DNA of 64,000 nucleotides from Marsupella aquatica (taxonomy: Eukaryota; Plantae; Marchantiophyta), in assembly GCA_973895155.1 (NCBI GenBank), contig OZ316894.1:1938457-2002456 (forward strand). The letters are read 5' to 3'. Below are positions 14,943 to 64,000 of the stretch, piece by piece. The position numbers were made by a program, and so were the translations under genes. The notes under the pieces are model-generated. The model saw only the letters and a list, made by a program, of their open reading frames with translations. It ran no database searches and was not told the DNA's origin. Position 1 is the stretch's first letter. Each line of letters opens with the position of its first letter.

Positions 14943-17923
14943 ATGAGCTCCAATACGGTGCAAAACCGTGGTTCCAATAGAATCATGTCGAAGGTGGGAG
15001 CTGCTCTCGTTGTGCTGCTTCTAGTTTTGGATGCACCGGTATTCTCTTCTGCGAGGTTTGTATTTGAGAATTGGTCCTCCAATACACGGTTTCGAAGGGG
15101 TCTTTCAGAGTCGAACGAGCGACGCACGATCGCGGTCGATTTGATGCACATAGAGCACGTCAACTCGCCCTTCTTGCAGCCCAATCTCACCTTGTTGCAG
15201 AGAGCACAAAACGCGGCGAAGAGGAGCAGGCAGCGAGCGGACTACTTCTCAAGTACAATCTTGGGAAAAAAAAAAGCATTTGGTGTGAACCATGCCTTGT
15301 CTTCGCCAGTCTACTCCGCGCAGGGTGACTACGTGATGCAACTCAGTGCGGGCACTCCCGCCAGGTAGTTTACTAATCTACTCTTACTAGTCCCGATTGT
15401 TTTCATTGTCAACGTTAGAATTGTATAAAATTTTAGAGAAATTGATACATAACCGGGTACAAAGCCTGTTTTCTCACAGTTTAATTCAAATTGTTGGCAT
15501 CGACAAGTACTCCTAAAATCTGTCAGAATTTCATGATTTGTTTATCGTACTGAGGATGCATAGTGGCAAGAAAAAGGCCAGTAGTTATTGATCACTAAAA
15601 TGAATTAAGTGGGCTGCAAGCCTGTGTAGTTACTAGTTTCTTGTGTTTCGGCTAGTTGCATGCATAGCAGAATGTTTGTAGTTCCTGGCAGATGCAGCAC
15701 AGAACATTTCCAAGGATATCTACCTCAATTGCGTTCCTGCTCCTCTACGGACTAGACGTTGGTTGCAACAAGGTTTCTCTGATATATTCCAGATGTTCAT
15801 GGGCTATAGGACATTACACAGCTATTTGTGATTTTAGATTGATGGATCCTTTACGTAAAATCATCCGAAAACTATGGAGTGAAGGAATGAACCTTCAATT
15901 CAGACGCTTCGAAGCTCTCCTCACCTGTCGTTTCGTTGGAATCAAATGATGTCAGCTTTAATCTTTAATTTGGTCATTTTGTGGTTTTACCGGTGCCGTT
16001 ACGTCAATCTACGTATCAGGCCCACAATTGAAACTGCTGACTAGGCAACTGAAAGCTATGTACCAATAATGTCTATAGTGTATGCAGTCATGCATGGACC
16101 ACAGCATTTGATTCCGCATTATATGAAGCTATAGATGGAGCTAGGATTTCTCAACGTTTGAAAATCCGAGATTTGATACTGCGTTGATTATGGCCCACAC
16201 ATCCTCGTGTGTAAGAGTAGAATTCCAGCTAGAACCCAGTTGGAATGGCTATCTTGGAAAGTTGATCTGAACCTGGCTAAGGAGAATGCTCCAAAACAAT
16301 TTTGGTCCTTACCTCATCACTCTGAGTATTTCCCTTGCTGTTCCTGATGATTTGCAGCAGACACATGGCCTGCTGGATGGTGTCCCTTAATCTTAATTTG
16401 TCCAGTTGGATGTCCTTAAGATACCGCTTTTCCGTTCTTCCCTTCCAGTGACTTGATTGCTTTGCAACTGATGCGTGAAATTTTGTCCAGGACTTTTGTG
16501 GCCATTATGGATACAGGCAGCGACTTGGTATGGCTACAATGCAGCCCCTGTACCAAATGTTTTCAGCAGCCCGATCCAGTGTACGACCCGACTGCATCGT
16601 CTAGCTACACTTCCATGCCTTGCACTGATGCGCTCTGCACCGACCTACCCGTCAATGGCAATTACCCTGCTTGTTCAACTGCAAGTGTTTGCCTGTATGA
16701 TTATGTTTATGGCGATCAGTCCTCTACTATAGGGAACATGGGCTACGAGACCTTCACTTTGACATCATCCACAGATGGCTCGGCGCAGGGGTTCCCTAAC
16801 GTCGGTTTTGGCTGTGGGTCCGACAATATGGGGACCTTTGGACCAGTTGACGGATTGGTGGGGCTCGGGCAAGGGCAGCTCTCGTTGGTGTCTCAGCTCG
16901 GAACTAGTATTGGAGGCCTCTTTTCCTACTGTCTCGTCAGTTACGCTTCGGCCCCCACTATGACCAGCCCACTGCTCCTCGGCAGTGCTGGGACCAGTGT
17001 GCTGACGTATACGCCACTAGTCCCCAACACTGTCAACCCGACCTTCTATTACGTCACCCTGAAGGGCATCACTGTCAACGGGCAGCCGGTTGCTTATCCA
17101 GCTGGTACGTAAATATCTTGCTCGCGCCTATTCCAATTCTCGGAAACAAGATCATACTGATTACACTAAATTTCGTCATGACGAGATTGTTCATTGACGA
17201 CTGAGAGTCGTCATACTGTTATTGTGATTGTTCATTGACGACTAAGAGTCGACGTCCCTGTTATTGTGAGGTAGCCACAAAAGTGATGTGTTCAATCGAG
17301 GTTCTTGGGTTTTTCTGGGATCTGCTGAATACCCTTTCCCGGTTCTCTTGTTTACGCAAGATCGAATCGCCGCTCTTGTCGTGAGGAATTACAGGATGCA
17401 TGTGTAATTGGTAATTGCCAATCAACTGGATACAATAGGCCAGTTCTTCACAATTTTCATATGTGAAATCACGAAAGTTAATGCATTTGTTTCACTTATT
17501 ATTGCAGGTACTTTCGACATTGACCCCACTACTGGCACAGGAGGAATCATCCTAGACTCTGGAACCACAGTCACCCAAATGTACGATGCAGCCTACACTC
17601 CATTTGTCAATGACATTTCCGCGCTGGTATCCTATCCTACTGTTACAGTTTCTGGCTTCGATCTGTGCTACGACACCTCCAGTGCGGGGGCCACCCCACT
17701 CTTTCCAGCCGTGGTCTTCCAGTTCGATGGAGTTGACCTCGCCATGCCGTCGGACAATATATTTCTGCCGGTCGACACCCAAGGCATCACCTATTGCCTG
17801 TTCTTCGCGAGCGCTGGTGTTAATGCAGCAGTCGGTATCTTCGGAAACGTACAGCAACAAAATTTCGAAGTCGTTTACGACACTGTCAATTCCAAAGTTG
17901 GATTCGCAGCAACCACATGCTAG
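14943..17923 (+). CDS. Secreted A1-family aspartic protease, nepenthesin/CDR1-like; exons 14943-15364, 16491-17104, 17508-17923 (alternative ATG at 14985)
   Basis: Signal peptide (VGAALVVLLLVLDAP), pro-region HxxSPF, GDYVMQLSAGTP, catalytic DTGSDLVWLQCSPC and DSGTT, Cys-rich insert, C-terminal IFGNVQQQNFEVVYD. Intron phases are consistent. Confidence 0.92.
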
Positions 17924-24709: not shown

Positions 24710-26323
24710 GTGTATGTCAAAACACCCATTCAAGGCCCCAATCAAGGTAGGGCTAATATATGATCCATACGAACCCTAGGCTCCACAGTGTAAGGGTAAT
24801 ATTGGGCGATACGCAGACATACACCCTGATCATTCACATACAGAGTTAAACCTGATCACAAATGCAGCTGGAGCGTTGGTTGGTTCTATGATGTCACACA
24901 TGCTATTTGTCTACATTGTTCACCTGACATGTTCAGTTGCCTACATGACAGAAGTAGAGTCCACTTTTGTTGGTGCAGAATCATTTAATTATTGTTTATT
25001 GAGTTGATACGGCAGCAGGTAAGTAATACTTTACATATCCATGACAAGACAAGGCATTGGGTCCACACATCCTTATTGACTTCTCATTTAAATAGTTTTG
25101 TATGTTGTGAGTCCTTGAATAGCGGATTGGAGTCCTTATCACACCACAACAGAAGTTTCTATTAGTCATTAGTACAGTAGCGCTACTTTAATCTATGCTA
25201 CGTTTATCAGAGCACATTTACATGGCTTAGATGTAAAATCAATGCGGTACATCAGCACTGTGATTCAAACAGCATGAAGTAGACCATTATCCAGGGCAAA
25301 AGTATGGTTGAAATCGGGCCATACTACATCCTCAAAGTCGTCATTCAGCCCCCATCCTTGAGGTGAATCATGTGCCTTAACACTGATTCCAGTTACATGT
25401 TTCTATTGCCATTAGCCGCGGCGGCAAAGGGGAGACATGCATTTATCCTGGGCTAGCATTGATCCAGACTAAAGCTAAGCATATAATGAGTTGAGAAAGG
25501 GAATCATTGGTGAAGAGTACATACCTGTGGAGCCCGTGCCATAGTGCTATGTTTTGTGACTGTTGGTGTAGTAGAAGGAGCGGTGTCACCCTCTCACTGA
25601 GCTTTGTGTGTGTACTTATCACCCTATTCATTAAAACTGGAATTTCTCTAGTCCAGAAGTTGACCTTCAAATTTCTTATTTTACCCCCAAAAGTTCTATA
25701 ACTTGTTCCCCAAAAGCATACATTTTAGTGGCCAAATATACACTTTTTGAGGTCTAAAATTACAATTCTAATGCCCAAATTATTAATTAAATAATTCAGT
25801 TATCAATTATTAATACTTATTAATTAAAAGACATTAAAGTGTTCTTATTATATACAATATAAACAATGAAAAAATAGAATAAGACAATATAATAAATTGA
25901 AATGACCATGATAACCAAGTTACACAAAGTAACACGGAAGGTAAACCGGTGATGTATTATAAAAGTAAAAAACCTATTTTTACAGGCTCGAGACCACGTC
26001 TGCCCCAATGCAGGCTCTAGATGGTTTTGACCGGTTGTTGAATGTATATCAATTACTATGTAAAAATCTATGTCAAGATTATCTCGACCCAAATGTAGGG
26101 TCCACATAATTTTGACCCGTTGTTGAATCTATATCTCTAGCTATTCCCTTTGTAGAGGGTCTAGACCCAAATAACCTTTTTCTGAGAACATATCTACAAG
26201 TAAATGAGGATCAACAGCATCTAGACTCAAATGGATACTACGCATAGCTTCACTCTTTTTTCGAGTAAGAATATGTATATGTACAACTCACATCGTAACT
26301 GTTCAGTGTAGGGTCGAGATAAT

Positions 26324-27598
26324 CTAGACCCAAATCTCATGCTCCTCCACCCCGCATAATTCATTTGAGCAAGTAAACCTAGACCCTGACGGGTCATATT
26401 TCATATCGCGATTACAGAAATTGAGAGGCTTTCTATTCCAGAACTTTGTTGTGAGGTCCCTACACCTCAAGACTTCCAAAACAAATCCCCGATGATTGTC
26501 TCTGTAGGGTCCTGTGTACTGATATCCAATTAATGTCTTTGCAAGGTCGTTGATCGCCTCCTCCGTCAATTTCTCCATTGGTGGTAATTGTTGCACTTCA
26601 TTTTTGATATCCCAGGGAATTTCGTCCGCTGTAACATCCAAGACTATATGGATAACATTGGGAACCCATACCATACTACCCCACCTCTCCGACAACAGAG
26701 CATAAATGGCAGCCTGTTGATCCCTGTCCGATAAAACATTGATCATAGACCACTTTGGATGATTGATAAAAAGATAGTGCTGAAGATTGAAGGCATGATA
26801 CAATTTCCTGAGCAGAGGCCACAGTATTTCTGGAAAGAATGTATCATCCGTGGAGTGATGCGAAAATGAGGAAGGAAACAACCCACAATTCTCTGGATTT
26901 GCAAACACCTTCATTGGAGTGTCATCAAGAAGGAGTGTATTAGTTTCGTTGTATAATCCACCATAACGTTTCCAAACAATCCTCAAATCCTTCAAAAGAA
27001 TATTTGCCTTCCCATCGGTAATGTCAGGCCTCTGGATTCCAGTATCAAATGTATCTTCTTGAGTGAGAATAAACTTGAATTGCTCTCTCTCTTCTTGATT
27101 GAAGATCAAATGAATCATTTCATCCGTCCTGGGTTTCCTTGCACAAGTCCAAATGGCAACATCAAATAATGAAAAAGCTGCGATTAAGAACTCGTGAAGA
27201 TGGGGTCGCTCAACATACATAAAGTTAAACCCTCCACGTCTCCCCCAGTGGACACCATTGACACTTGTCGCACTACGGCGCGGTCCGGAACTTGGCGTTT
27301 TGACAAAATCCCAGCACATTTTGTTGAGGTCAAGAATCAATAGCTTCCGTCTGATTGGACCGTGAAGTGGAGGCAAGGGTCCTGCAAAGTACGAACACCA
27401 ACGTTAGAATTGTGGGAGATAAAACAAAGGAATGCTCGAGACGATCTCGATCATCACAAGTGAATGAACAACAGTCAACATCATACCTGTTGTTTGTGGA
27501 AGGTCAGTAGTTGAAGAAATCTCAGGACATCTTCGGAGATTATTGTCGACGCACTCCACAATTGGTAAGGGCCCGCCTATTTCTGTGAAGGTAGACAT
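26324..27598 (-). CDS. Transposon-borne FCP1/SCP (NIF, HAD-superfamily) phosphatase-like protein; exons 27598-27487 and 27381-26324
   Basis: RRKLLILDLN, YVERPHLHEFL, FDVAIWTCA, KDLRIVW and NTLLLDDTPMK are NIF/FCP1-homology motifs. A 105-nt phase-1 GT-AG intron joins the two exons in frame. The start codon is uncertain. Confidence 0.75.
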
Positions 27599-27652
27599 AA
27601 TAATTTAGACGGCTGAATTTCAGGACAGTTCAAACTAACTTGGGTTTCAACC

Positions 27653-30600
27653 TCACGTGCTGAAAGACCCAAATTCATCTAGAAGGTTATCTCCTAGTTG
27701 GTTTTGGATGTCCAAATTTATCCCTCCGGGAAGGGTCTCAACAAGAGCTGGCTCAGACCAAACTGGCACTAATTTAAACTTATCCATCCTATACTTTCTA
27801 GATCGAATAATCTTCTCAGACTGCTCTATAGAGACTTGTTGACCTTTTGACGGTCCATCAGTCCAAACATAATGAGTAGCACTTGCTTTGAGTGATTTGT
27901 AACCAGTTCTACCGATTTCAGTCCCCGGTTTCCTAACAAAAGGGAGAATTACGGGGCTTCCAGTAGAAGAATCTGTGAAAACAAGCTTATTCTCTGAAGC
28001 GCAAAACATTTGGTCCAAGGGAGAGGACGATGCACCTGCCTCGTCCTGAGGGGGAGTATGGAAGCCACTAGCTTTCTTAGTAGAGAAAATCTCATCCAGT
28101 TGAGGAGGGCTTGGAATTGGTTGGCTAACTGCATCCTGCAGGGTGGATTCCCAGCCAACATCCAAGGTTGAAGACTGTTGTTCACGTTGTGCATCCCCAA
28201 GGCCACCCGATGAAGGAACACTTGGAACATCGAGATCATCTCGAGCATCATTTCCAAATTCAGGGAGTATTTCACCCTCCTCTTCCATGTAGCTTGTAAT
28301 TTTCGGGCCCTCCGTTTTGCGATGCTCTAAATTCTCCGCAAATACTTCCTCATAAACACTGGCTTCCACTGGAGCTATGTCTGCGGCCGCCTCTTCTATA
28401 AGAACGAGGGGACCAGCAGTAATTTCCTCAGATGGTAACGGCTCCTTGGGTGGCACATATAAAACTTGCTTGTTGTCATGAAGGAGCTGAGCAAAGGCTT
28501 CAGTGAATTCCATCTCTTGAGCTGTGTCCGAATACACAAAACAATCCCGACCAAGAATGACACAAGCTTTCAATGTCTGTCCTCCAGAGAAGAAATCCAA
28601 CACTGTATGACCTGGGCACGAGAAATAATCAACAAGACGCTTTGTCATTCGCAAAGGCTTTGCTCTCGGATTTACAAAGCCACCACGCCGACCGACCATC
28701 TCATAAGATGGGGCCATCTTCTCCAAAACTTCGACATCAACAGTGGATTCATCGAGCTTCTCTTTCCCCTTTGATTGGTCTTTGTTGTTCCCAGTAGGGG
28801 CCTTCAAAGGCAAGACTGTGAAGTCTTTGTCCCACTTCTCACTGTAGTTCCAGAACGCATAAAAGTCATCAAAGAAAATTTGGGACCAGTCTGGTTCCTC
28901 TTCACAACAAATTCCCCCAAAGATGATTGAGTCCCGAGCTCCAATGAGAAAATCTCCCTCCTCCTTGGGCACCTGATCACGGTAGTAGCTCCCGTACTCC
29001 AGCTTCATGTGCACTTTCTTCTCACGACGAATCTTTTCAAAGGCACTCTGAATCTGGCCTATCAATGGGCCTTGACGGACAAAAAAGATTACTAAGACCT
29101 CCTTCAAGTTCGCCATCTGCAAGCAATACTCCAGCAAGACAAAAATTTCGGCATCTGTCCACTGCCGTTGTCGAATACGACCAAAATTGACAATGGAGAG
29201 TGGACACGTCCTTTGCACCGAGTCAACAACCTCAGGCTTCATTGTCCTCATCAAATTATCGCTAAAAAATGTGCGATAAGGAGTATCCTCCATTGAAGGC
29301 AATCCGCCAAATACCTTGCAATATATCTGCTCAAGCCTCACAATGAGACTTTGCGGAAATGGGTCTTTTGGCCTATTTCTTTTTAGGAGGTTGGAAATCC
29401 AAACCTCTCCAGCAAGTTGTCTAAGTTTGGGCAACTCACCACGATCCATAAATGCAGGCAACAATTGAGTTAGCTCAAACCAAGTGAGTGAATTGGTAAA
29501 CCGATCCGAATACTTCAAAATGAAGTACTCCACAATTTTTACCCTCAGCTTGGTCATGACTTTGAAAGTATGAGCCATATCACTCATTGATTGAATATCA
29601 GATTTGTTGGCTTGGTCTTTCTTCAATAAAACCTTCTGTTGTTGAACGGCAGTAAAAACTTTCAGAATGTCGTCATTACTCAGGTCTCCTTCAAAGCATC
29701 TAAACAATGCCGGCGTAATCATTTTTGTTGTCCGGGCTTTCCCGTTTATTTTTGAACCTAACTCCCCTAGACCATCCGGAAGAAGTCCCTTGACCCAATC
29801 GATGCACATTTGTCTCCAAGTTCGGAAGAGGTTCTCATCCGAAAACAACAACCAAAAAATATTCCTCAGATCGGATTTTCCAGTCGTTATTTTGGCAAGG
29901 GCCATAAAATCCTGGTCCAAACAGTACAAAACAAATCTGAGGCTCGAGACGATCTCGAGGTAGAATTAAGGAACTATGATAAAATTTATGGGGAATACAT
30001 GAAGATAAATCAAATACAGAAACTTGACCTTGAGGCTCGAGACAATCTCGAGCTCGAAGTGGATTTGAGTTCAAATATACCTAGAACTTTTGATGATCCG
30101 TTAGTCTATTGGACCCAATCACGGGTCTCTCCGGACGGCCACACTCGTCAAACTGTCGACGCGCATGGACCATAGTATCAAGAAAACAGGACTCATACTC
30201 CATTGTCTTATTAACAGCATTTGCCCTTTGTGAGTGTTGAGCAAGTATTGTCCTTGGAGTTCTGTCCGAAAGAATTCGTGACTTTCGATATTGCAGACTC
30301 TTCGCGACCTCCTTCAACTTTGCATCGCTCTTAGCCCAACCTATGATCCAAACAGCTACTTTTGCCGAGTGTTGTCCACTGATTGCAAGGAACTGCACCT
30401 TCTTATTCTTAACACCCCACTCAAACTCCTTTCGATCCTCAGCAGTATTCTCATAATGGAGCAACTGCAAACTCTCTCTTGAATACGGAATTAAATCACC
30501 ACAGCTGGTACCATTCCAGGGTTTCTAACCATGGATTTTGCGACCTCCATGGCATGGTCTTTATTGAACATCCTATAAACCAAAACTGCAGATGGCGAAT

Positions 30601-32573
30601 CTATACTGGTGACAGGAATGTCAAAAGTTTCATTCATGCCAAATGTGTAATACTCCTCAATCTCCTTAAGAACTTCGGCTCCTTCCTTAACGCTCTTTTC
30701 TCCCGGAGCATCTCCTGGAGTGCCATCATCATCGGTATGTGCATTCACACCCGAGGAAGATGCCGGAATGAGATCTACCTTGGGCGATGCGGACTTTTTT
30801 GGCGGATGAGCCTTCTTCGATTTAATTTTGGGTTTGTCAACCCTCTTCCTCTTTTGAGACACCTTCGCTTCATTTTTGTCCGAACCGGAGGTCTTGTCTC
30901 TTGCAGCTACGGATTTTACTTTACCTGTTTGTCTCCGATGAGACAACACCCACTTTTTACAAGCATCCTGGTCAAATTCTCCTGCTCCGAACACAAAATC
31001 AGGGGATATAGATTCAAACTCCCCCAATTTGGATTCCAACATTAGTCTCAAAACCTTCCACGTGAAAGGAGTCGTGAATGCATCATCGCGATCAAGCCCA
31101 TACTTCCGACAATAAAGGAATCCAAAAATTATGTCCGCTCCAGATATAGGAGTATCTTCTAGCAAATTACTTGTAGTGAAACCCTCGGGGAAGAAACCCA
31201 TTGATATCACGCTCAGTTGTTTCCTGGCTGCACGTTCAATGTTAAGATCGCAAGAGTAGTTTTTGGCGTGAAGTCTAATTAGAGCCCACTTCCCTGTTTC
31301 GTGGTTCTCCACCGTCAAAACCATGTCCTTACCGTTACTCGTCACAATAGAAACAACAGGCCCTAGAAGGTTGCACACCAGAGGATCGATTGATGGAGAC
31401 CTCGTCTTCACACAAATAATAGTTCCTTCCATGTCTTCAGTTTCAGCAAGCTCAATGGCCCAACAGAATCCAAATAAACTCTGTCCAGGGCAGGAAATCT
31501 CAATTGCATGTTCATCTTCGACTACCAGATTAGGCGATCCCAATTTCGCACCTGTACAGCAAAAATGTAGCAATTGTCAGGAACATGTACTACAAAACCA
31601 AGAAACAAATAGGTGGCTCGAGATGATCTCGATCTTCAGTTTACTATTCAGACATGTTCCAATGCCATTTCATCCGTGGAATTTAAAAAGAGATTTCAAA
31701 CCCAAGAATCCCAGGAAACACAATAGGCTCGAGATGATCTCGAGCCACCATCTGTTTAAAAGAAAAAGATAAGGGCTCGAGATGATCTAGATCCACATAT
31801 ATATCAGTTGAGGCTTTATTCCAACTAGTCCAAAAGGCAAGCTTGGATCACATTGAAAAGGATATTAGTAATTGAAGTAGACAACAAGGAGTCCTTCCAA
31901 CTGGAAGAAATTGGCCAAGGGAGACGAATGAACATAAGGGAAGACGGTGTGGGATATATTCGGCTCGAGACGATCTCGAGCCTAACATATCAAATGAGTG
32001 ATCTGAATATCATATTCAACAATTAACATCATATTCAATCAACGATAAAAAATCCACTTTCTCCATTAACTTCGGATACCCACAAACCCGTTCGGATGTC
32101 AATGATCAGAACGAGTTGGAGGGCACAGAAGTCCCTGGAGGAAGGAAATTTTAGATATTTTGGATATGATGTTCAATTTTGAAGGGTAAGGGTTTCCAAC
32201 TTGAAGAAATCTCACTAGGTCACATGAAGGAATTGCATATTGGCTCGAGATGATCTCGAGCCTCATGCCACTTACATCAAATGCAAAATCAATTAATAGA
32301 TCACAACTTTTGAAACAAAGTATTGGAGAAAACATCAATAGGCTCGAGATCATCTCGAGCCTCAACGGCATCCAAGGAATCCAAAAACAAGTGGACCAAT
32401 TGAAGCTCGAGACGATCTCGAGTTAAACCTGAACAGAACAAAGATGAAGAATTACGTTTAATGGTGCGATGGATCTGATGTGCTGAGTCTAGATGGGTCT
32501 GGAGCTCTTTGCCAACGGTTGCAAGGTTGTACTCAGCGAAGTCCTCCTTGGAGAAATCTACAACAGTCGACAT
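27653..32573 (-). pseudogene. Transposon-borne spliced gene, ParB-like domain + beta-class N4C/N6A DNA methyltransferase-like domain; exons ~32573-32456, 31551-30081 (frameshift near 30500, TAG at 30083-30081), 29911-27653
   Basis: The splice junctions are in phase (AAA C|GT GCG and TTC TAG|gt...ag|GAT TTT). ParB-like segment: FDIPVTSID..YRMFNKDHAMEVAKSM..PAV-DLIP..FLAISGQHSAKVA. MTase-like segment: NPRAKPLRMTKRLVDYFSCPGHTVLDFFSGGQTLKACVILGRDC. One frameshift and one in-frame stop interrupt it. Confidence 0.65.
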
Positions 32574-33721
32574 GGCTGGTGATGAGAGGAACGTACTACG
32601 GGCTGAGAACTTAAAACAAATCTCGAGCCTAAAAAGAAAATCTCGACCCTATCAAAGCTCGAGCCTAAACACAAAATCTTGACCCTATAAAATCTCGAGG
32701 AAAAAACCTAATCTCGATCCTCTGCAATCTCAAGGCTAATAGAAGGATCTCGAGGCAAGAGCGCGAAACGATCTAGAGGCAAGGAGGCAAGGGACGCGAG
32801 GAGGCGAAGAGGCAAAGAGGCGAGGAGGCAAATGTGAAAATGGGGAGTTCAAAACCCCTGAAGCCACTATAAGCCCCTCGGGGGTCGGCCTTGGCCGTGC
32901 CAAGCGTGCCAGGGCTCGTGCAGGCTCAGGCAGGCTGCCACGCAACCTACTGAGTGCGTACAGTCATTATTACGGTCACACGTGTTGTCATTATTGTTAT
33001 CCGTACTTCAGCCCTGCCGCAAGTTTAGCCGTGACACAAGTTCAACCATTCCGTCTTATTGCCCTTTTTGTCTGTCAGGGTTTTATATATTGCTTCTCCT
33101 TGCTCTTCAGCGGGTCATTCTTCTCATTTCGTTTCACCGCTCGCTCGTTTCTTCCTCTGCCTCTCTGCTCTCTCTCCCTCTCCCTCTCCCTCTCTCTGGC
33201 TCTAGATTTGTGCTCTGATCTCTTTCTGTTGTTCTTTTCAAGGGTTTTGGAGTCTATGTTTGTGTTTAGGATATTTTGAGAAATTGTCATTTTAAGCCCC
33301 GAAGGAGGTCTAAAATAATTGAGCTCCTATCTTTTAGAAAACCGAACCTTTTCAGCTTATACTAATGTCGGTCAAAATCCATTTGGAAGCCTTTTCCCTC
33401 TATTTGATGGCCTTTTAGAAGCTTTTTCTCAGTGTCTGGAAGTAAACTGGGAGCCTACTTTCTTAATTGCACCAAATCATTCCTCTAGATCATCTAGAGC
33501 CATTTATATGTTCTTATTTTGGGTGGCTTATTATTCCTAATAGTTTCTTTGTCAAATACAATGTCCTTTTTGGCTCGAGATCATCTCGAGTCATAAGTTT
33601 GGTCCTCAAACTTATTCACTTTCCCCTTCTTTCTAATGGTGCATTTGGTTTTCCTTCTTATAATAAATGTTTTTAGAGTGTCGGAGGTATAGAATCTTAG
33701 TTCGATATTCAGTGAGATTCA

Positions 33722-33950
33722 TATTTTACCTCGAGATCGTCTCGAGCTAAATACTTCTGAATTTTTACATATTGGTGTTTTTGGTCCCTTTTCTACCTCG
33801 AGATCGTCTCGAGCTAAATACTTCTAAATTTTTACATATTGGTTGTTTTGGTCCCTCTTCTACCTCGAGATCGTCTCAAGCTAAATACTTCTGAATTTTG
33901 ACGTATTGGTGTTTTTGTCCCTCTTCTACCTCGAGATCGTCTCGAGGTAG
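33722..33950. repeat. 67-bp tandem repeat (~3.4 copies), each unit carrying the palindrome
   Basis: tacctcgagatcgtctcgagctaaatacttctgaatttttacatattggtgtttttggtccct repeats at a period of 67/67/66. Confidence 0.9.
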
Positions 33951-34078
33951 AAGAGCTTCTTATTTTCTCTATCACACAATTTTGTGGGATAAACTTCTAC
34001 ACTTGGGTTTTTGTAGTCACTTTACCTCGAGATCATCTCGAGGTAACTACATCCAACGGTTTGGGCCACATTTTCAAA

Positions 34079-37000
34079 ATGGGGAGTTTCTCTCGAGGGG
34101 ACAAGGTGTGCCTCGTAATCGACGGAGTGGAAGTTGCTTGTGGGACGGTCCTCAAGGTTGACCCGGGTGACTCAGTGCGTAATGTTGATTTGGGAAGTAA
34201 TCGTATAGGAGTTCTCATTGAGAAGTGCTATGAGGGATCACGGGAAATTCCTTACCCTTTGCCGCCGATCAGGACCCTGTTTGATGCTGTCGACTCTTGC
34301 ATTATTTGGGATGCCCCTTTTGCATATTTGAAGTCACAGTCAACTCCAGCGACAACGAAAATGGATGCCTCCTGTTCTACAAAGGATACGGTTCCGGGTT
34401 TTGTACCAGAGAAATCGTCGGTGGAAAGTTTTGGAGACTCGATTGTATCTGGCGATGAAGTCGAGGTCTGGATCGGCAATCAGATTGTGGCTCGTGGATT
34501 TGTGTTCAAGACGAATCCCAATGAGACATGTCACAATGAAAGACTTGGCACTTCTAGGATTAGTGTGAAAATATGTGAAGTTTTTCAAGGAAGGGAGAGG
34601 TTACCCTTTCCTCACAATGGAGCCGATACTGTTCAGGAAGCATTGGATACTTTTGTATTGTGGAATTTAAAGGATGTTACTCGGAGGAGTTCTTCCCGGG
34701 ATATGCTAAACAACCTGTCCAGACAGGATGTTTTTTCAAATTATAATTTCAAGGATTATAGTTTGCGTTCTAATTGGATGACCGAGGAGGTGGAATTGTA
34801 TGCTGAGGATAATCGGACCAAAGTGGGGGTTGGCATCATCACAGTTCCTTTCGAGTCAGGTGCAATTGATGATGATGTTCTTGGACCAGATCACGTTGGG
34901 GTTGCTGTCACACGCGTGATTGACCCTCTATTTTTCCCAAATATCTCCCCGGGAGTGCCTGGTCTTGTTAAGTGGGCCGTCCGTTCACTTTTGCTGATAT
35001 CAAGGGGTATTTTTCTTCTGGATCTCATTGAAGAGGTTTCTCCGAAACCAATTATTGATGGTCGAGATCATCTAGAGGTAGATATGAAAGGTGACACTGA
35101 GTTTTTGAAGCGCCCGTATAATTTCATCAAGAGAACAAAGGTCAACCCAGATGAAAAAAGGAAGAAGCACTTGGAGTCTCGGGCGATACTGAAAATCACA
35201 GAGGAGGAAATCGACTCCATCCAAAGAGAAGGTTGTTGTAAGTTGAAGTGTTGCCTCAGCATGCCGAGAGAAGACCTACAGGAGATAAGGAGGGAATACC
35301 ATGGGATGTCAAGCGACAACAAAACCAGTCACATTCTCACTCTTTTTGGCTGTAGGGAGAAGGAAGTGGAGACAAAAGGATATTTTGTTGTAAGAAGTAG
35401 ACTTGTTTGCAAGGGTGCATTTATTAAAATGCATGGATTCAGCACTGCCAAGTATTATGATTACAAAAATCAATATGAAGCAGGTTGCACGGTTGGATTC
35501 CACGGAAACAAGGGTTCACACAAGACACGGGGAAGCACCTTGCATGCTCGTGCTTTGTTGGAGTCCATTCTAACCCAAAACGGAGAACCCATGCCGCATC
35601 TTCCCTATGGAGGGTCTCACGGGACTGACACGGTTGAGTACAGACTTCCATCTTGTTTCACGAAGAAAGAGATTTTTGAGGAGGTATACTCAAAAATGGA
35701 ATTAGATGGCTACGTGAAGGTGAGTGAAAACACTATGTATAAACTCTGGAGTGAGTCCTTCATGAATTTTGACTTTCACAAGGGAAGTGCATTTGCAAAG
35801 TGTACACTTTGCACTGAGTTCAAAGATCAGTTGATGCGGGAGAAGAGAAAGAAAGAGCGTTTAGAGATTGAGGAAAGAAGAGCTCGCCATCTTCGTGAGC
35901 AAATGTCTAGGAGATATGTTTACTATGCTCATAGGGTTCTTGCGAAGAAGGATCCTGAGAACTATCTTTGCATTATACATGACAAGATGGACCAGGCCAA
36001 GACATGGATCCCTAGGTTGGTCCCCACTCCTAAATCATTGTCTGGTAGTGGTCAACCGCTCCCCATTGCGCTCACTGGGATGTTGACCCATGGAAGGGAT
36101 CCCGGAGTGTATGCTCACTTCAGTTTTACTGGGCTTTGGCCAGGAGATGCAGACTTCACAGTGACATCATTGGCCAAGTGCCTTAGAGATCTGGAGGATT
36201 ACAAGGGGGACAAATCTGGAGACCTCCTTGAAGGATTATATTGGGCTGCAACGAGGCCAATTTTTCAATCTCTTTTGGACTTTGAAGCATTTCTCGCAGG
36301 TTACTTAGAACCCAAAAAAGTCTCAATTGCTAGATTTCAAGGAGCTGAAGATGACCAAGACGACTTTGGTGTTGATCCCAAGGCTACGTCTACCTCTTTC
36401 AAACCATTGCCAAGGCACCTGACCTTGCAAATGGATAATTCAGGGAAAGATAACAAAAACCAGTACGTGATGGCATTTTGCAGTGAGCTTGTTAGTAGAG
36501 GGGTTTTTGAAACAGTGCAGATGTCGTTTCTCATGGTTGGTCACACCCATGAGGATGTCGATGCATTGTTTTCAAAAGTATCCAACCAAGTGAAGTACAA
36601 GGAGGTTTCTACCCTCTTGGGGTTGATGGCTGAGGTTTGGGAGTGTGAAAGCATTCATCCTGTGCCACGGTTGATCCAAGAGGTTGCAGCTTACAAAGAG
36701 TTTTTGAAAACTTTCAAGGTAAAAGACATAGAGGGTCACTCAAAACCAGTGGCATTTCTTTTCTCTATGAGAGATAATGTTCCAATATATCAATACAAAG
36801 CACATGTGAAACAACCTTGGTACCCTCCAACCGGAAGGTCCATTTGGAGAACTGATTCCAGCACCAATGCTCTCATTTTACCAGAAGGTCAACCGTTTGC
36901 AAAACCCATCTCCGGGGATGTACGAGGCAAGGTTGAAGAAATCATCCCATTCCTTAATCGTTACATTGAGTTTTTGAAGAAGAGCTGTAAGGATGAGACC

Positions 37001-37768
37001 TCTACAGCATATCGTGAGCGGTTTCCTTTGGTGAAATATTGGGAGATGGTGGTGCAAGTATTATCTGGGGAGCTTACAATTGAAGGGGAGGCAGAAATAC
37101 AGTTAGCATTGACATATGAATTCTGGCCAAAAACCAACCACGGAACTGGTTACAAGGTTAATAGTACAGGAACCTCTGAACCATTGGGGGAGCCTAGTAG
37201 TAGTACACAGAATCCACAAATGGTGGAGCTTCAGAATGAGTACCTGGAAGAGATGGAGGATCAAGCTGCAACATTTGTTGGTGCTCGACACGAGCGAGAA
37301 CTTGCACGTTGGATTCCTCTGCAGGACATTCAAGAGGGTCACTTTGTATTTCTCCGTCCAGAGGATGAATGGGAAAAGAAGAATGGGAAAGAACGTTTCT
37401 GGTTGGTGAGAGCTTTGGGTGTTGTGGACCCAAACCATGAGGTTCCTTCAGAAGACTTGCAATGCAATGAGAATTCTCCTACTAGTACACGGTATGCTCC
37501 TATGTTCCAAGTGCAATGGTGGAGGCCTAAACATGGTAAGCATGATGCACCGGATCATGTGCGATATTCACGTTGCTTTCAGACCACTAAGACTTGGGAG
37601 GTGGATCCTGGGTTTGACAATGCCACTGAACGTTGGCAATTTGCTAATTCTGCTATGTATGGATTCAAGTCACGCTCTAGAGAAGAAAATATAATTGATA
37701 GAGGTTTGACCATTCCCAAGAATGTTTTGAAAACACTCAAAACCTACATGGAAGGGATTGTTGAGTAA
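34079..37768 (+). CDS. Sola-like DDD transposase (~1230 aa) with three N-terminal Tnp1/En-Spm-like repeats and a C-terminal BAH/Tudor-like segment
   Basis: Uninterrupted ORF inside the TIRs. Cys motifs GCCKLKCC, VCKGAFIKMHGFS and KCTLC. Putative catalytic motifs IIHDKMDQAK, LTLQMDNSGKDNKNQY and FLMVGHTHEDVDALFS match the DNxxxxNKN...GH pattern I associate with Sola1-type RNase-H-fold transposases. Confidence 0.8.
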   Translation: MGSFSRGDKVCLVIDGVEVACGTVLKVDPGDSVRNVDLGSNRIGVLIEKCYEGSREIPYPLPPIRTLFDAVDSCIIWDAPFAYLKSQSTPATTKMDASCSTKDTVPGFVPEKSSVESFGDSIVSGDEVEVWIGNQIVARGFVFKTNPNETCHNERLGTSRISVKICEVFQGRERLPFPHNGADTVQEALDTFVLWNLKDVTRRSSSRDMLNNLSRQDVFSNYNFKDYSLRSNWMTEEVELYAEDNRTKVGVGIITVPFESGAIDDDVLGPDHVGVAVTRVIDPLFFPNISPGVPGLVKWAVRSLLLISRGIFLLDLIEEVSPKPIIDGRDHLEVDMKGDTEFLKRPYNFIKRTKVNPDEKRKKHLESRAILKITEEEIDSIQREGCCKLKCCLSMPREDLQEIRREYHGMSSDNKTSHILTLFGCREKEVETKGYFVVRSRLVCKGAFIKMHGFSTAKYYDYKNQYEAGCTVGFHGNKGSHKTRGSTLHARALLESILTQNGEPMPHLPYGGSHGTDTVEYRLPSCFTKKEIFEEVYSKMELDGYVKVSENTMYKLWSESFMNFDFHKGSAFAKCTLCTEFKDQLMREKRKKERLEIEERRARHLREQMSRRYVYYAHRVLAKKDPENYLCIIHDKMDQAKTWIPRLVPTPKSLSGSGQPLPIALTGMLTHGRDPGVYAHFSFTGLWPGDADFTVTSLAKCLRDLEDYKGDKSGDLLEGLYWAATRPIFQSLLDFEAFLAGYLEPKKVSIARFQGAEDDQDDFGVDPKATSTSFKPLPRHLTLQMDNSGKDNKNQYVMAFCSELVSRGVFETVQMSFLMVGHTHEDVDALFSKVSNQVKYKEVSTLLGLMAEVWECESIHPVPRLIQEVAAYKEFLKTFKVKDIEGHSKPVAFLFSMRDNVPIYQYKAHVKQPWYPPTGRSIWRTDSSTNALILPEGQPFAKPISGDVRGKVEEIIPFLNRYIEFLKKSCKDETSTAYRERFPLVKYWEMVVQVLSGELTIEGEAEIQLALTYEFWPKTNHGTGYKVNSTGTSEPLGEPSSSTQNPQMVELQNEYLEEMEDQAATFVGARHERELARWIPLQDIQEGHFVFLRPEDEWEKKNGKERFWLVRALGVVDPNHEVPSEDLQCNENSPTSTRYAPMFQVQWWRPKHGKHDAPDHVRYSRCFQTTKTWEVDPGFDNATERWQFANSAMYGFKSRSREENIIDRGLTIPKNVLKTLKTYMEGIVE

Positions 37769-38212
37769 GTCAAATGTTTTTTAGTAGTCACTCTGTCAGA
37801 GTGAGGGAGTCTAGTATGTCAATTAGTTTGGAATTAGACATGTCAGAGTGAGGGAGTCTATGTCAATTAGTTTGGAATCAGACATGTCTTTAGTACTTAC
37901 TGAGTGTTGGTTAGTACTAAGTACTAGTATATCTATTTAAGGAACTAATTATTATAATATTTTGGGATACTAGTTTGAATAGGTGGAGGTAATTGGACTT
38001 GGATACCTTTATAATTGCTTCAATTAATTATTATATCAATACAGACTATATATTACATGAAGTCTTAATATCCATGATAGGATGTGAGTGCCTCTTAGTA
38101 CTGTCTAGTAAACCTTAGTTTCAACTCGAGTTGCTTAGAATGTACTAACAAATTACTTGTCTGAATGGATATTTAAACTAAACCCTAAGTAGAAGGTTAA
38201 TTTAGCTAGCTA

Positions 38213-38316
38213 AGGGTAGAGATCATATTGAAGCTTTACTAGTTATATGGGTAGAGATCATATTATTTGAAGCTTTACTAGTTATATGGGTAGAGATCAT
38301 ATTGAAGCTTTACTAG
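38213..38316. repeat. 35-40 bp tandem repeat x3 in the transposon 3' region
   Basis: gggtagagatcatattgaagctttactag(ttatat) is repeated. Confidence 0.8.
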
Positions 38317-38882
38317 ACACTTATATTCTATTAGTCAAATTGAATCAATGTAAGTAAATTCTACTTCTTATCCAACATATTTTACATTATTATCACCCAA
38401 ATGTTTTTCTTTAGAATCCAAATTAATATTTCATTTTCTCCTATGTACAATCTTGATCCCCCAAATGTACAACATCTGGTGCCCAAATGTACAACTCCCA
38501 CTGCCCAAATGTACAATTCTTGTGCCCAAATATTTTTTTTTGTGCCTAAATGTCCAAAGATCAAAGAATTTTCCAGTTTTAATGAATAGACTGATACTTT
38601 GACTGATATTGTGCGGTCCCGCCACAGCACTTGACAGAAAGCAGTGTCCCACGAAGTCGAGTAGCATGTGAAGGGTGAATATAGTGCCAGACTATGGAGA
38701 GGGTGGTAGCATAATGAGATCAAGAGCCAGAGCTGAAGCGGGAGAATAGTGGAGGCAAAAGATCCTCTAGTAGAGACAGAGTGTACAAGTGTGGAGCACA
38801 ACATATAGGCTGGTACTAGGGAGACTAAAAAAGCGCTACTTTTTTAGGGTAGCCGTCAGAATGGTGGCTGTTTGTTAGGTTA

Positions 38883-40576: not shown

Positions 40577-40684
40577 GGGGGGACTACAATGACGGAGTTG
40601 ATCGATTGATAAGCGAGAAGCTCAAGAAGTGTTGTCGGTTCGCTTCCTATAGTCGGAGCGGGGGAATTCGAGTTGATTCGAATC

Positions 40685-43600
40685 ATGGCGGATGTGGATG
40701 TTGAGGTGGCGTTGATGACGTTCCAGTCGCAGGAGTACGCAAGGGCGTCGATGATGTACTCGGACCTGGAGCTCGCCTGCCAACTCCAGCTCAACGAGGC
40801 CCTCGCTGCCTCGGCCGCCATGAGCAATGAGGCGGGAGCAGTGCGTCCAGAACAATCGGCAAAATTGGCGATTAATGCGAGAGGACCGGCGGCTGGAAGA
40901 GGAGGAGGAAGAGGAGGGGACACAGGAGCGGGAGACAAAGCAATTGCGTGTGCGGTACAGAGTCGCGAGCTGCGGAGACGACAGCAGGAGCTGCTCGACC
41001 AGCAGAAGGCCGTGAAAGCTGGGCGGGATGTGACGGTGGAGATGCAGCGGAGATGGCACGATAGGGAGTTCTCGAAGATGATTTCGGAAATGCCGGAGGC
41101 CGAGTGGGAAAGTGATGGAGACAATTTCGAGAAACCTTTCCTGCCTGGCACCTCGTCAAGTGTTGCTTGCGAAGACGGAGCACAGGAGGGAAATTCTGCA
41201 GAACAGGAATGTATTCTGTACTTCGCCAAGGCTAGGGAGGATCCAGGGTATGTGGGAATGGCATGGGCCGTGACGGACGCCTCGACGGGCCAAGTTCTGT
41301 TCCAGCAGAGCAAGTTTCTAGGGCTCAACGTGAGTGCCTATTCGGCTGACTACACGGCTCTGATCAATGGCCTGTCCTACGCCCGCTCTGCAGGGGTGCG
41401 GAACATTGTGGCTCATGGCGATTCGGCTCTTGTTGCCAATCAGGTATTCAATTGCACTAAAGTTATCCATAGCTGGACACATTTGCGAATTTGATGAATT
41501 GGAAAAGCATAGCCGTTGCTCTTATTATTACTGATGGTGGCGGCAAGTGTGACTATTTCTTCAACTCCCTTGTATGAAATGTTGAGAATTTGTCATAATT
41601 TGATCGTGTTTGGACTCCAAAGGTGTTCAGATGTACTGCAACATATTAGGAGGATAACTTGTAATCAAAATTTGTAGAGAGCTGGAGCTTCGGTCGGGTT
41701 GAACAACATTTAGCGCTCTGAACCCTAATTTCCTAAAGCGTGATGTAAAGCAATCAAAGTCTGCAAAGTACTACCGTTATAATTTTAAGATTTTCTTTGA
41801 TACTTCAATTTGAGGGCTGGATCTCCGCTGTATTCGTACTCTCCTGATTGGTTATGGTAGAGTACCTGTCCCCAAATTAATTAGCAGGGGAAAATTGCAT
41901 TTCCAGGTAGTGCAAGAGAATTCGTTTTGGCCCATTGTAGAACTCGCTGTGGACAAGTAAAATGTATGCGTCGCGTTTTATTCGTTTTTTCGCTTTCTGT
42001 ACATGCTTGTAATCTCCTCCAACTCAAAGCAGAACTTCAGCATACAGTAAGGAATTAGGGACATTTGTCAACAGTGTTCAAAATGGTAGAGCTATTTGTC
42101 CAACCCTTTTGACTCTAGGCCAAAATCTAGATGAGCTCGGCAACACGATTCCTCAGGAAAGTTCTGTTGGGGTAGAACCAAGCAAGACCAGGGTTGCAAT
42201 CTGTTTACCGGCTTATTTACTTTCTGTGTCAACGGAGCTTTTTCTTTAGGCCAGAGTCCACGTCCATGTCGTTCTAGTCAATCATTGCTACTTATATCGC
42301 AATCATTGCTACTTTCTGTCAACCAGGGAATGTTGTACAGTGTAGAACTTTTGTAATTTTCTTTGTCGATAGTTACATTTAGTGACGGGGTCCACTAGCT
42401 TTACCCTGGAGCAATTTGCCAATAAGACGTTACTCCGGATGACCTCCTCCATTGCAATGTTGGTTTAGTCATATGAATTTCGTACTTGGAAGAATTTGGT
42501 TTTGAGCACGGCTCCAAAATCCAAGTCTTATGAGAAATCGCCGCAAATGGAAAATGCGTGGATTTCAACACTGGTTAAAATCCTTCATTATATCATTATG
42601 AAAAGTTGGGTTTTGAGGACTGCACAATTATCGCGAATTTTCCACATTCACGCGACTAGTTATTTCAATAAATTCCAATAAAAAACATTTCTCCCTGCAG
42701 TGGCAGAACTCTCGTAGGTTTTTGTTTGGGATCAAATCTGCCCTTGGTGATTCTTTAGCTGTGATATATGGATGCAGCAGATTTGAAAGACCTAGTTTGG
42801 GGACTTGCTCATAGTCATACTTACTTCGTGTGCTTATGGTTTACTTCTTGCATCAGGTCAGAGGACAGTGGAGGGCACGTTCCCAGCCGCAAGTCAAATT
42901 TTTGGAAGAGGTGAAAGAGTATGAAAAGGAACTGCTGGATGGGTTTACCGTTCTTCATGTTCCAAATGACAAGAATCAGTATGCTATAACCCTGGCGAGG
43001 CAGGCTATTCAAGGACATCTGGAAAAACTCAGAAAAAATGGTCAACAGATCCCCGTACAAGCCAAGGACGAGGACATTAGCGAGGATTGTCCCATTTGCT
43101 TTGAGAGAACGCCTGTTGATGAAATGTTTAGTGCAAGGAGTTGCTCCCACAGATTCTGCCGGAATTGCTTGTCCCAGCACGTAGAGGTCCAGGTCAAGGA
43201 GAATCTGGTGCCAGTTCGCTGCCCTATGGAATGCTCCAACCATCTGGAGCTTGATCAATGTCAGCCATATCTTCCTCTCAACGTTGTAGATGCATTTGCA
43301 AGGCGTTTAACAGAGGCCAGTATACCCGAGGCAGATAGAGTTTACTGTCCATTCAAAAATTGCTCCGCCTTGATGTCGAAAGGTGGACTGAATCTGTCGA
43401 GCGCGGGAAGCTCGTCTGGTCATCCATCGATTGGCCGTTGTGAGTGTATGGTGTGTCACCGGCTCTTTTGCGTTGAATGTCAGGTTCCTTGGCATGTAGA
43501 CCTGTCCTGCGCCAAATTTCAGAAACTTCCACCTGATGAAAGGGATCCACAAGACGTAAAGCTACATCAACTAGCAAGGAACCAGAATTGGCAGCGTTGC

Positions 43601-44448
43601 AAGAAATGCAAGCACCTCATTGAGCTGAATACAGGCTGCTACCACATGACTTGCAAGTAAGTTCTTCAGTTGTTTGTTGCTCCATGAGTAAGTTTAAAAT
43701 AAATGCAACTGTTGGCGACACGTCGACCTTACGTTTGGGTGTGGCTGTGTTTTTCTAAAAGAAAAGGCTTTCATGATCATTGAGCCTTACAAAAAGCTTC
43801 CTCAGTTTCATGCGGACTCGTTGTTTTCTGCTCTTTGTCTCTCTCTTGTGTACCCAGGGTTAATCCGCCAGCCTGGGGAGCGTCAGATATCTTTTGTTTC
43901 CGGTCAAGATTTTCCTCTCTTGAAGTGTGAAAATTTTCAGTGCTTTCTGGCATTGTTGGTGATGTAGGTTAATTATATGTTTTATGCGTCTTTAGTTCCG
44001 TCTACAACTTTCTTTCTTTGAGCCATGTTGGGCGTGAGTTTCACGCACTTGTGCAGCAGGGCGGAAGCACAAGTTGTATACATGCAATTGCCGACTGTGG
44101 GAGGAGAAAACGTCGTTGAGGATGCTTACATGTGTTTTGCATTGTTTGTACAGGTGTGGACATGAATTTTGCTACACTTGTGGAGCAGAGTGGAAAGACA
44201 AACACGCGACTTGCAAATGCAAACTATGGGATGAAAACAACATCATTGGGGACGATGATGTGGATTCTGACGACGACGAAAGTGAACCTGAATATGAGTC
44301 CGAACCTGAGGACTTCAATACTGCCTACAACTATTACAAGACTCAGATATGTAAGCACTGGCGCAATGGTAACTGTTGGTCTGGTGACGCCTGTAATTTT
44401 GCACATGGACAAGGTGAGCTGCGGCGAGTGGAGTACCGCCATTTTTGA
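40685..44448 (+). CDS. RBR-type (RING1-IBR-RING2) E3 ubiquitin ligase, RSL1/RFA-like, with an RNase H-like domain and a C-terminal CCCH zinc finger; exons 40685-41443, 42857-43656, 44154-44448
   Basis: [15 protein letters not shown]-terminus; RNase-H-like [20 protein letters not shown]; RING1 [15 protein letters not shown]; [25 protein letters not shown]; RING2 CKKC..GCYHMTC|[11 protein letters not shown]; [25 protein letters not shown]. Splice phases are consistent. Confidence 0.9.

Positions 44449-60853: not shown

Positions 60854-64000
<3,147 letters not shown>

Follow-up and report, generated by a model that had tools for sequence, protein, structure and literature searches.

A probable Sola1-type transposon of the liverwort Marsupella aquatica with a conserved two-gene accessory module and its own palindrome array

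Introduction

What use might a transposon make of two genes that are not its transposase, together with about 20 copies of a palindrome that is specific to it? The question is raised by a stretch of 64,000 nucleotides from the liverwort Marsupella aquatica (assembly GCA_973895155.1, contig OZ316894.1, positions 1,938,457 to 2,002,456 of the forward strand), referred to here as the window and providing the numbering used throughout, which contains between positions 25618 and 38595 a DNA transposon of the cut-and-paste type, 12,978 bp long and bounded by terminal inverted repeats (TIRs). An initial annotation had seen a multi-gene mobile element at this locus, and this much stands: an intact transposase gene is accompanied by a gene for a ParB-like and methylase-fold protein (gene A), a gene for a phosphatase-like protein (gene B) and the element-specific palindromes. 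The transposon itself is real and well formed; its accessory module is conserved, and it has a palindrome array of its own. As to what the module does, the reading put forward here, which we consider somewhat probable but would not press further than that, is that this DUF7869 transposon carries a conserved gene pair whose predicted task is recognition of the palindromes of the element and control of its transcription or chromatin, not methylation of DNA.

The ends of the element and its transposase

A repeat search of the window found two arms of 26 nt (25617–25642 and 38571–38596) that are 92% complementary; the TIRs are taken here as 25 bp, starting at 25618 and ending at 38595, which leaves 23 of the 25 positions paired and two mismatched. 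Their 19-nt core occurs exactly twice in the 64 kb, where 0.02 occurrences would be expected by chance, and is thus exclusive to the two ends. With the edge of the element marked by a slash, the left boundary reads ...GTGT ACTT / ATCACCCTATTCATTAAAACTGGAA and the right boundary TTCCAGTTTTAATGAATAGACTGAT / ACTT TGAC..., and the only length of target-site duplication (TSD) compatible with both ends is 4 bp (ACTT), a match that taken by itself has a chance probability of 1/256. Both the 25-bp TIRs and the ACTT duplication had been proposed initially, and both are borne out. When the empty site is reconstructed, no long open reading frame (ORF) spans the insertion point, the longest being 91 aa. 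The direct repeats near the right end (Table 1) have the sequence GCCCAAATGTACAA; at the left end, between 25660 and 25790, there are CCCAAA-type words that lie in the same orientation as these right subterminal repeats and are not inverted relative to them.

The transposase lies in an open frame extending from 33902 to 37768, in which a Met at 34079 begins an uninterrupted protein of 1229 aa. This consists of three N-terminal repeats of about 100 aa followed by a DUF7869 DDE core, whose motifs IIHDKMD, LQMDNSGKDNKN and GHTHEDVD are invariant in an alignment of 15 sequences, and it is colinear from Met to C-terminus with the 1250-aa homologue P0007, at 47% identity. Judged by its sequence the gene is therefore intact, and on the plus strand, as first described. 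The 60 homologues collected (708–2254 aa) reach at best 56% identity over the core; 22 of them come from Riccia sorocarpa, while the others include proteins from Physcomitrium (P. patens), Ceratodon and Mytilus. Some of the Riccia copies fall into near-identical clusters (at least 90% identity) of 21, 11 and 6 members, from which it follows that the DUF7869 family has been active in liverworts.

Assignment of the element to the Sola1 type is probable, on grounds that are indirect: the 4-bp TSD is of the length expected for Sola1, there are DUF7869 relatives in Physcomitrium, and the Ectocarpus element Sola1-1_Ec32, which also has a TSD of 4 bp, has as its best match in Repbase Sola1-1_PPa (PMC12477816; this and the other papers cited are drawn on for the passages covered). 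The transposase motif strings were not found in the alignment supplement for Sola2, and the term “DUF7869” was not found in a full-text search of the literature. Sola elements are rare, yet present, among active plant TIR elements (PMC12973397). The view, taken in the initial annotation, that Sola elements carry essentially only a transposase is outdated, as the Sola2 elements, which likewise make 4-bp TSDs, carry Fanzor1 (PMC3627910).

Several relatives of the transposase are joined to other sequences. The DUF7869 proteins P0063, P0064 and P0066 are fused or merged with PhyH (2-oxoglutarate (2OG) oxygenase), OTU protease and SAP domains, and the family thus seems to pick up varied accessory domains. 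In the 1660-aa Riccia sorocarpa protein P0283 (R1sor_024984), a DUF7869 transposase is joined to a beta-class methylase-like segment with the motifs LDMPTGY and IDFAGGWGAT; its Pfam match (E-value 6e-4) is below the cut-off, and the segment is a different one from that of gene A, giving no match to the gene A family profile (A3).

Table 1 Positions of the features of the element in the window, with the grounds on which each was assigned.
Feature	Position	Strand	Basis
Left target-site duplication, ACTT	25614..25617	.	4 bases identical directly outside both TIRs
Left terminal inverted repeat, 25 bp	25618..25642	+	92% complementary arms; 19-nt core at both ends only
Cargo gene B, NIF/FCP-type HAD phosphatase-like, Cys-rich C-terminal extension	26324..27598	-	Pfam NIF, PDB match
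Cargo gene A, ParB/Srx-like domain and beta-class amino-methyltransferase fold	27653..31432	-	Pfam, tblastn, homologue alignment
1-nt frameshift in the ParB-like domain of gene A, or assembly error	30497..30500	-	Overlapping frames; homologues read through
Divergent intergenic region, with 15 of 19 palindromes	31433..34078	.	Repeat search and palindrome mapping
Transposase gene, 1229 aa, intronless reading suffices	34079..37768	+	Pfam DUF7869 7.4e-44; colinear alignment with homologues
Right subterminal direct repeats	38459..38557	+	4 copies at <=2 mismatches, period about 22
Right terminal inverted repeat	38571..38595	-	Arm pairing and core-match count
Right target-site duplication, ACTT	38596..38599	.	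Flanks right TIR

Structure and family of gene A

Read from its N-terminus, the product of gene A would comprise a Lys-rich stretch, a ParB/Srx-like domain, a conserved helical region, a methyltransferase fold, a disordered linker and a small C-terminal domain. The gene is divided between an upstream exon (30088–31432, frameshifted) and a last exon (27653–29936; 770 aa, P0002), the start being placed at 31432, where the open frame has its first Met, with additional upstream exons possible. Between the two lies a predicted phase 2 intron of 151 nt (29937–30087) with GT-AG borders, containing two palindromes, the removal of which restores “...QKFV...QDF”, to be compared with “...SKFQDW” in a homologue; as for gene B, the intron was predicted from homology and GT-AG sites only.

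The reference against which the gene could be followed is P0216, an intact full-length family member of 1009 aa. In a tblastn comparison its residues 55–120 match 30697–30500 (frame -1), residues 151–257 match 30398–30096 (frame -3) and residues 261–1006 match 29911–27662 (frame -1), and the window protein can be aligned over the full length of P0216. A Calypogeia fissa protein, P0091, is 51% identical to 30521–30084 and resumes at 29914. At the change of frame the frame -1 match stops at 30500 and the frame -3 match begins at 30521; because the frames overlap an intron could not be fitted in, and as the homologues P0091 and P0216 read uninterrupted through this point (“NPG..PQVA(D/E)(L/V)I”), the cause must be a 1-nt frameshift or an error of assembly. 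A 65-nt in-frame intron at the P0004/P0005 junction was considered and ruled out, P0091 and P0216 being continuous over the same residues. The earlier picture of two spliced cargo genes on the minus strand is thus right as to strand, while the splicing is a prediction and the frameshift had gone unremarked.

In a word-based search gene A has a single homologue, P0006, which is 37% identical and colinear to the extreme C-terminus. A profile made from two sequences reaches much further: run against 1.84 billion representatives it recovered 162 proteins at E <= 1e-3, 87 of them at <= 1e-10 and 29 at <= 1e-30, mostly fragments. The named members come from Calypogeia fissa, from nine genes of Riccia sorocarpa (R1sor_000947, 001602, 008484, 008738, 009615, 011498, 013679, 016354 and 018816) and from one gene of the fern Ceratopteris. 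No relatives were found in collections of metagenome contigs or of viral contigs, nor was there any usable match in the ESM Atlas for P0005 or for aa 20–240 of P0002.

A beta-rich domain at the C-terminus (aa 938–985 of P0216, corresponding to about 27950–27660 on the minus strand of the window) is modelled with a predicted local distance difference test score (pLDDT) of about 96, and an “E(Y/F)GSF” sequence at this end of the protein is conserved in P0002, P0006, P0069 and P0216.

The folds of gene A and the question of DNA methylation

The folds of gene A were examined in a model of P0216 built from a 97-row alignment, which has a mean pLDDT of 73.8 and exceeds 85 across aa 60–750. When this model was compared with the PDB using Foldseek the top match was CcrM (E-value 7e-7), followed by M.PvuII, M.RsrI and the bdelloid N4CMT; for aa 463–754, VIA gave Z values of 16.8 for CcrM (root-mean-square deviation (rmsd) 3.4, 217 residues aligned), 15.7 for M.RsrI and 15.0 for M.PvuII. 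Within this Rossmann fold the motifs follow the order of the beta class, with motif IV preceding motif I.

One reading is that gene A encodes a functioning N6A/N4C DNA methyltransferase and that the copies of the element are marked by it, at the palindromes (which contain CTCGAG/GATC) or close to them; this was the idea of the initial annotation, which spoke of DNA marking, and also of the authors who described the algal elements discussed below. The completeness of the beta-class fold in the P0216 model speaks for it, as does the loop of motif I that binds S-adenosylmethionine (SAM), which reads VLDFFSGGQ in the window and is strongly kept as TVLDFFSGGQ among the 36 rows listed. A Pfam match of the last exon to N6_N4_Mtase also passes its threshold (27.4 bits against a cut-off of 26.7), although it is limited to the C-terminal part of the profile (positions 160–207 of 221). 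The difficulty lies in the catalytic motif IV, which in beta-class amino-methyltransferases is (D/S/N)PP(Y/F/W). That pattern occurs in none of the 40 aligned rows of the family, whose consensus at the site is CPLA[IF]VDF[ST]R, and in the window the site reads IVNFGR, the conserved Asp being replaced by Asn, in a copy that is frameshifted besides. Because the catalytic motif is absent family-wide, DNA marking is unsupported, and we regard an active methyltransferase as decidedly improbable. Going by its motifs, the methylase-fold domain of the gene A protein probably still binds SAM, but is not likely to work as a canonical N6A/N4C DNA methyltransferase.

Modelled by itself, the N-terminal domain (aa 50–250 of P0216) has a pLDDT of 81.3. 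Foldseek places it nearest to Noc (E-value 6.7e-3, probability 1.0), followed by ParB, sulfiredoxin, PadC and KorB, while in the wide VIA comparison PadC comes first with a Z of 7.3 (rmsd 3.3, 97 residues aligned), then KorB (6.8), the serine kinase SerK (6.5), pNOB8 ParB-N (6.0), SbnI (5.8), sulfiredoxin (5.8), Atu1540 (5.3) and human Srx (4.5). All of the top eight belong to the ParB/Srx superfamily, the next being SspE at 3.5, with unrelated rows at or below 2.9, and it is because this list of matches is so consistent that the modelled domain is assigned the ParB/Srx fold. A weak sequence match in the PDB had suggested instead that P0005 is a CID (RPRD1B CID, E-value 0.09); this was ruled out, the model being alpha/beta and its neighbours ParB/Srx proteins. 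ParB CTPases, the partition proteins of this superfamily, have a GERRxR motif for CTP binding and a helix-turn-helix (HTH) region that binds parS; gene A does not show this combination.

Gene B

Gene B is predicted to consist of exon 1 (27487–27598, 112 nt, with its ATG at 27598), an intron of 105 nt with GT-AG borders (27382–27486) that contains one palindrome, and exon 2 (26324–27381), the first exon and the intron being predicted because they are needed to supply a start codon. Its ATG is separated by 57 nt from the stop of gene A. Its membership of the NIF family is clear (Pfam 7.6e-16, 58.6 bits against a cut-off of 21.8); its top match in the PDB is UBLCP1 (3shq, 4.9e-10), and a match to NCBIfam TIGR02245 at 3.4e-14 is below the cut-off of that model. 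The homologues P0220, P0221 and P0222 are 61%, 57% and 42% identical and have in common with it a Cys-rich C-terminal extension, whereas identity to ordinary angiosperm NIF proteins is about 30%, and for this reason gene B can be no recent copy of a host housekeeping gene.

In NIF/FCP phosphatases the catalytic motif I is DxDx(T/V). Gene B has DLNKM at this position, and so the dephosphorylating function first ascribed to it is not upheld: it keeps the nucleophile Asp and the DD of motif IV (LLLDDTP), while the second Asp of motif I is lost, as it is also in relatives (DLNKI in P0220, DVEGL in Riccia P0197 and D(V/L)NGL in angiosperm relatives).

The palindrome array and a proposed mechanism

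The 17-bp dyad-symmetric palindrome CTCGAGATNATCTCGAG has 19 matches in the window at no more than two mismatches, all of them between 27435 and 35077 and hence within the element, where 0.01 would be expected; in five copies the dyad is perfect and in nine it has one mismatch. If three mismatches are allowed, 21 of the 22 matches in the window are inside the element, as are 24 of the 25 exact matches to the 8-bp half-site ATCTCGAG (1.65 expected). The initial count of about 20 element-specific palindromes is thus confirmed.

The 15 copies in the divergent intergenic region, which is 2.6 kb long, form one cluster upstream of gene A (31617–32422) and another upstream of the ATG of the transposase (33483–34042). 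In the latter, tandem units of 67 bp (33724–33950) hold four palindromes, one per unit; there are three copies of the unit at 88–100% identity and a partial fourth, and the array ends some 130 bp before the ATG. Besides those in the predicted introns, one palindrome lies in a coding exon of gene A and one in frame within the coding sequence of the transposase, where it encodes RDHLE (35061–35077) and, within a variable linker, coincides with a short insertion that is absent from each of the 14 aligned homologues. Given this distribution through cargo introns, gene A exon and transposase, cargo and transposase must have long shared one sequence environment. Between the two clusters, a spacer free of palindromes (32617–32832) contains six half-site repeats of the form AAATCTCGAGCCTAAA, as well as a short tandem repeat of the GAGGCGA type.

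The mechanism proposed for the module is as follows. The transposase would act on the TIRs and on the subterminal repeats. The palindromes would be bound by the ParB-like and helical front part of the gene A protein, which would probably act as a dimer and bring its non-canonical, SAM-binding methylase-fold domain, together with the NIF-like partner, to both promoters; in consequence the expression of the element's own copies would be tuned, or their silencing countered. A bolder form of this proposal would see in the module a device for self-recognition, in which a ParB-like reader, fused to a catalytically rewired methylase fold and seated on the roughly 20 palindromes, recruits a partner resembling the phosphatases of the C-terminal domain (CTD); at both promoters this partner would reset RNA polymerase II or chromatin, so that the element governs itself epigenetically with no DNA being methylated. 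This we would advance only tentatively, thinking it unlikely in its entirety.

The palindromes might of course serve other proteins. The transposase could bind them, or a host factor could, and they would then work as promoters, enhancers or enhancers of transposition; on this view the N-terminal repeats of the transposase are similar to the accessory domains with which CACTA elements bind DNA, and the accessory proteins have their place of action elsewhere. Such a role would accord well with the clustering of the palindromes directly upstream of both start codons, with the conservation among homologues of the three repeats of about 100 aa (those of P0009 weakly resemble TNP1/EN/SPM, E-value 0.097), and with the fact that no HTH or DNA-binding region has been demonstrated in gene A. 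Transposase sites are, however, usually subterminal, and here the right subterminal region holds another repeat, while in the passages covered of the work on red algae (see below) the elements with a gene for a ParB domain likewise carry inverted-repeat arrays adjoining that gene. On balance we take this alternative to be unlikely, though deserving of serious attention.

Alternatively, the palindromes could lack any protein partner, being small repeats that are self-spreading or made by recombination, comparable to the palindromic clusters of organelles and giant viruses. Such repeats might leave behind copies of the kind observed within a predicted intron, a coding exon and, as an in-frame insertion, the transposase; set against this are the strong concentration of the copies in two promoter-proximal clusters and the good conservation of the dyad, and the idea seems to us very improbable indeed.

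How firmly is the module tied to the element?

Evidence on the association of the two cargo genes with each other, and of cargo with a transposase, was sought elsewhere. Two Riccia gene models, P0152 (999 aa) and P0197 (635 aa), consist of a methylase-like part followed by a NIF part, as in the gene order of the window; whether these are genuine fusions or adjacent genes merged in the model, the order of A then B recurs in another genus. For cargo and transposase there is an indication from one locus (L033) among 80 metagenome loci surrounding distant transposases, in which positions 2479–2820 match the helical region of the gene A family (E-value 3.5e-10 among 2969 ORF pieces) some 7 kb upstream, and on the same strand, of a degraded DUF7869 transposase (pieces 9527–11455). 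The TIR and palindrome of the window were not shared by these 80 loci, where there were two TIR-like matches at chance level and one 50-nt blastn match; a search for TIRs with TSDs gave no convincing ends in 28 distant transposase loci; and among the proteins collected blastp found no fusion of cargo with transposase.

A number of observations weigh against the proposed mechanism, and several of them have already been touched on. The folds of gene A are those modelled for P0216, which is 26–39% identical to the window protein, and not for the window protein itself. The likeness of its N-domain to ParB/Srx proteins is structural only, at Z values that are middling (7.3), with no ParB domain found by sequence in Pfam, NCBIfam or a PDB profile search, and with the GERRxR motif for CTP replaced by (V/I)SGQHS in the six members aligned. 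It is a prediction that the protein on the palindromes is the product of gene A and that, jointly with gene B, it regulates the promoters. The gene A copy in the window is frameshifted, and as a consequence this copy either needs intact copies in trans or begins to decay. The window holds a single copy of the element, so that it is a prediction from one copy that the cargo moves together with these ends. Finally, tblastn found the cargo in 0 of the 80 metagenome loci (893 kb), and even with the family profile only the 98-aa fragment in L033 was recovered, leaving 79 of 80 without cargo; in Riccia, each of the 52 listed transposase tags is more than two genes away from every one of the nine cargo tags, the smallest distance being 11 genes, in lists that are incomplete. 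It follows from the distant loci and the non-adjacent Riccia tags that many DUF7869 elements are without the cargo module.

These last findings, and the frameshift, are equally those that would be called on in support of a quite different explanation, namely that the cargo is a captured pair of host genes (Pack-type, or restricted to a lineage), a passenger that performs no service for the element. The annotation of the Riccia and Calypogeia homologues as ordinary genes would fit such an origin. There are nonetheless five points on the other side. The nine Riccia paralogues fall into different clusters at 50% identity, and with 162 clusters overall this is a pattern typical of genes borne by transposable elements; gene B is far removed from ordinary plant NIF genes, as noted above; palindromes are embedded in the predicted introns and in an exon of the cargo; the Ectocarpus element Sola1-1 has, in the passages covered, the same architecture; and the Riccia DUF7869 model P0283 has merged with another beta-methylase-like segment. 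The one-off capture that had been named at the outset as a possible refutation is in particular answered by the breadth of the gene A family, with its members in Riccia, Calypogeia and a fern, and a passenger origin in general we hold to be quite unlikely.

Comparison with known systems

At the time of the initial annotation no element with this combination of components was known to its author, a statement that has been overtaken by descriptions of two algal systems, Sola1-1_Ec32 (PMC12477816) and the Plavaka elements with PAG genes (bioRxiv 10.1101/2025.02.11.637652). Sola1-1_Ec32 of Ectocarpus is 21.5 kb long, with 282-bp imperfect TIRs and AACCG-CGGTT termini, and on the strand opposite to its transposase has a gene for a 1104-aa protein with a ParB-like domain and an N4C/N6A DNA methyltransferase, the authors' proposal being that this protein binds the element that encodes it, and modifies it (PMC12477816). 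Both are large DNA transposons with a 4-bp TSD and an opposite-strand gene of about 1100 aa that encodes a ParB-like domain followed by a beta-class methyltransferase (for the Marsupella element, with folds taken from P0216). They differ in host and in dimensions, a brown alga, 21.5 kb and 282-bp TIRs contrasting with a land plant, 13 kb and 25-bp TIRs; moreover the catalytic motif is gone family-wide in the present case and there is a second cargo gene. Neither a NIF-like partner nor a palindrome array, both of which are present here, is mentioned in the passages covered of the Ectocarpus report, and the accessory proteins themselves were compared by description only.

In the red algae, Bostrychia and others contain giant DNA transposons of the Plavaka (CMC/EnSpm) group with a cassette PAG1–3, in which PAG2 combines an N6A methylase with SET and PAG3 a ParB-N domain with a 2OG oxygenase; tandem inverted-repeat arrays adjoin PAG3, and self-binding was proposed by the authors (bioRxiv 10.1101/2025.02.11.637652). 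These elements resemble the present one in having ParB-N or methylase accessory genes and inverted-repeat arrays near the ParB gene. They are unlike it in the superfamily of their transposase, in that ParB and methylase are in separate genes, and, so far as the passages covered go, in having no phosphatase-like gene.

Elements of this kind are accordingly known from algae, and what is new here is a host among the land plants, a partner gene of NIF-like type and a non-canonical motif IV conserved throughout the family. A full-text search of the literature, largely outside which subscription journals fall, gave no description of a ParB/methylase-cargo transposon in a land plant.

Fusions of a ParB domain with a beta-class N6_N4 methyltransferase also exist in bacteria and phages, with DPPY kept. 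They share with gene A the sequence of a ParB/Srx-like N-domain and then a beta-class amino-methyltransferase; gene A is distinguished by a long helical insert and an N-terminus rich in Lys, has DF[ST]R in place of DPPY, and is predicted to contain one intron or more. In the VANDAL elements of Arabidopsis, which are Mutator-like, an accessory protein (VANC) reportedly acts on motifs of its own element and changes the epigenetic state. The design, an element-encoded protein with motifs belonging to the same element, is alike, with the function in the present case being predicted only, while the protein family and the transposase superfamily are unrelated to those of the Marsupella element. Fungal KDZ/Plavaka elements are said to carry a TET/JBP dioxygenase as conserved cargo, which is likewise an enzyme of the DNA-modification type, although enzyme and superfamily are different.

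Surroundings of the element

To the right of the element, at 40613–43657, an ORF with an RVT_3 (RNase H-like) domain is followed by one of the RING-IBR type (RBR E3 ligase). Other ORFs of the window are of plant type: in addition to the RBR E3 ligase they include a TAXi-type aspartic protease (16420–17920), a papain-like protease (60830–61321) and an ABA4-like protein. In keeping with a land-plant host, probably a liverwort, the named proteins closest to the transposase and the cargo belong to liverworts (Riccia sorocarpa, Calypogeia fissa), mosses and a fern.

Implications

Transposons with ParB or methylase cargo and inverted-repeat arrays are a recent addition to the literature, described in brown and red algae, with green algae also cited by those authors in the passages covered. 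The Marsupella element extends this algal design to a land plant. If its module truly binds the element's own palindromes, the element would be a compact example, open to experimental test, of how a transposon can govern its own chromatin or transcription; in that case the “methyltransferases” of the algal elements, too, may not methylate DNA.

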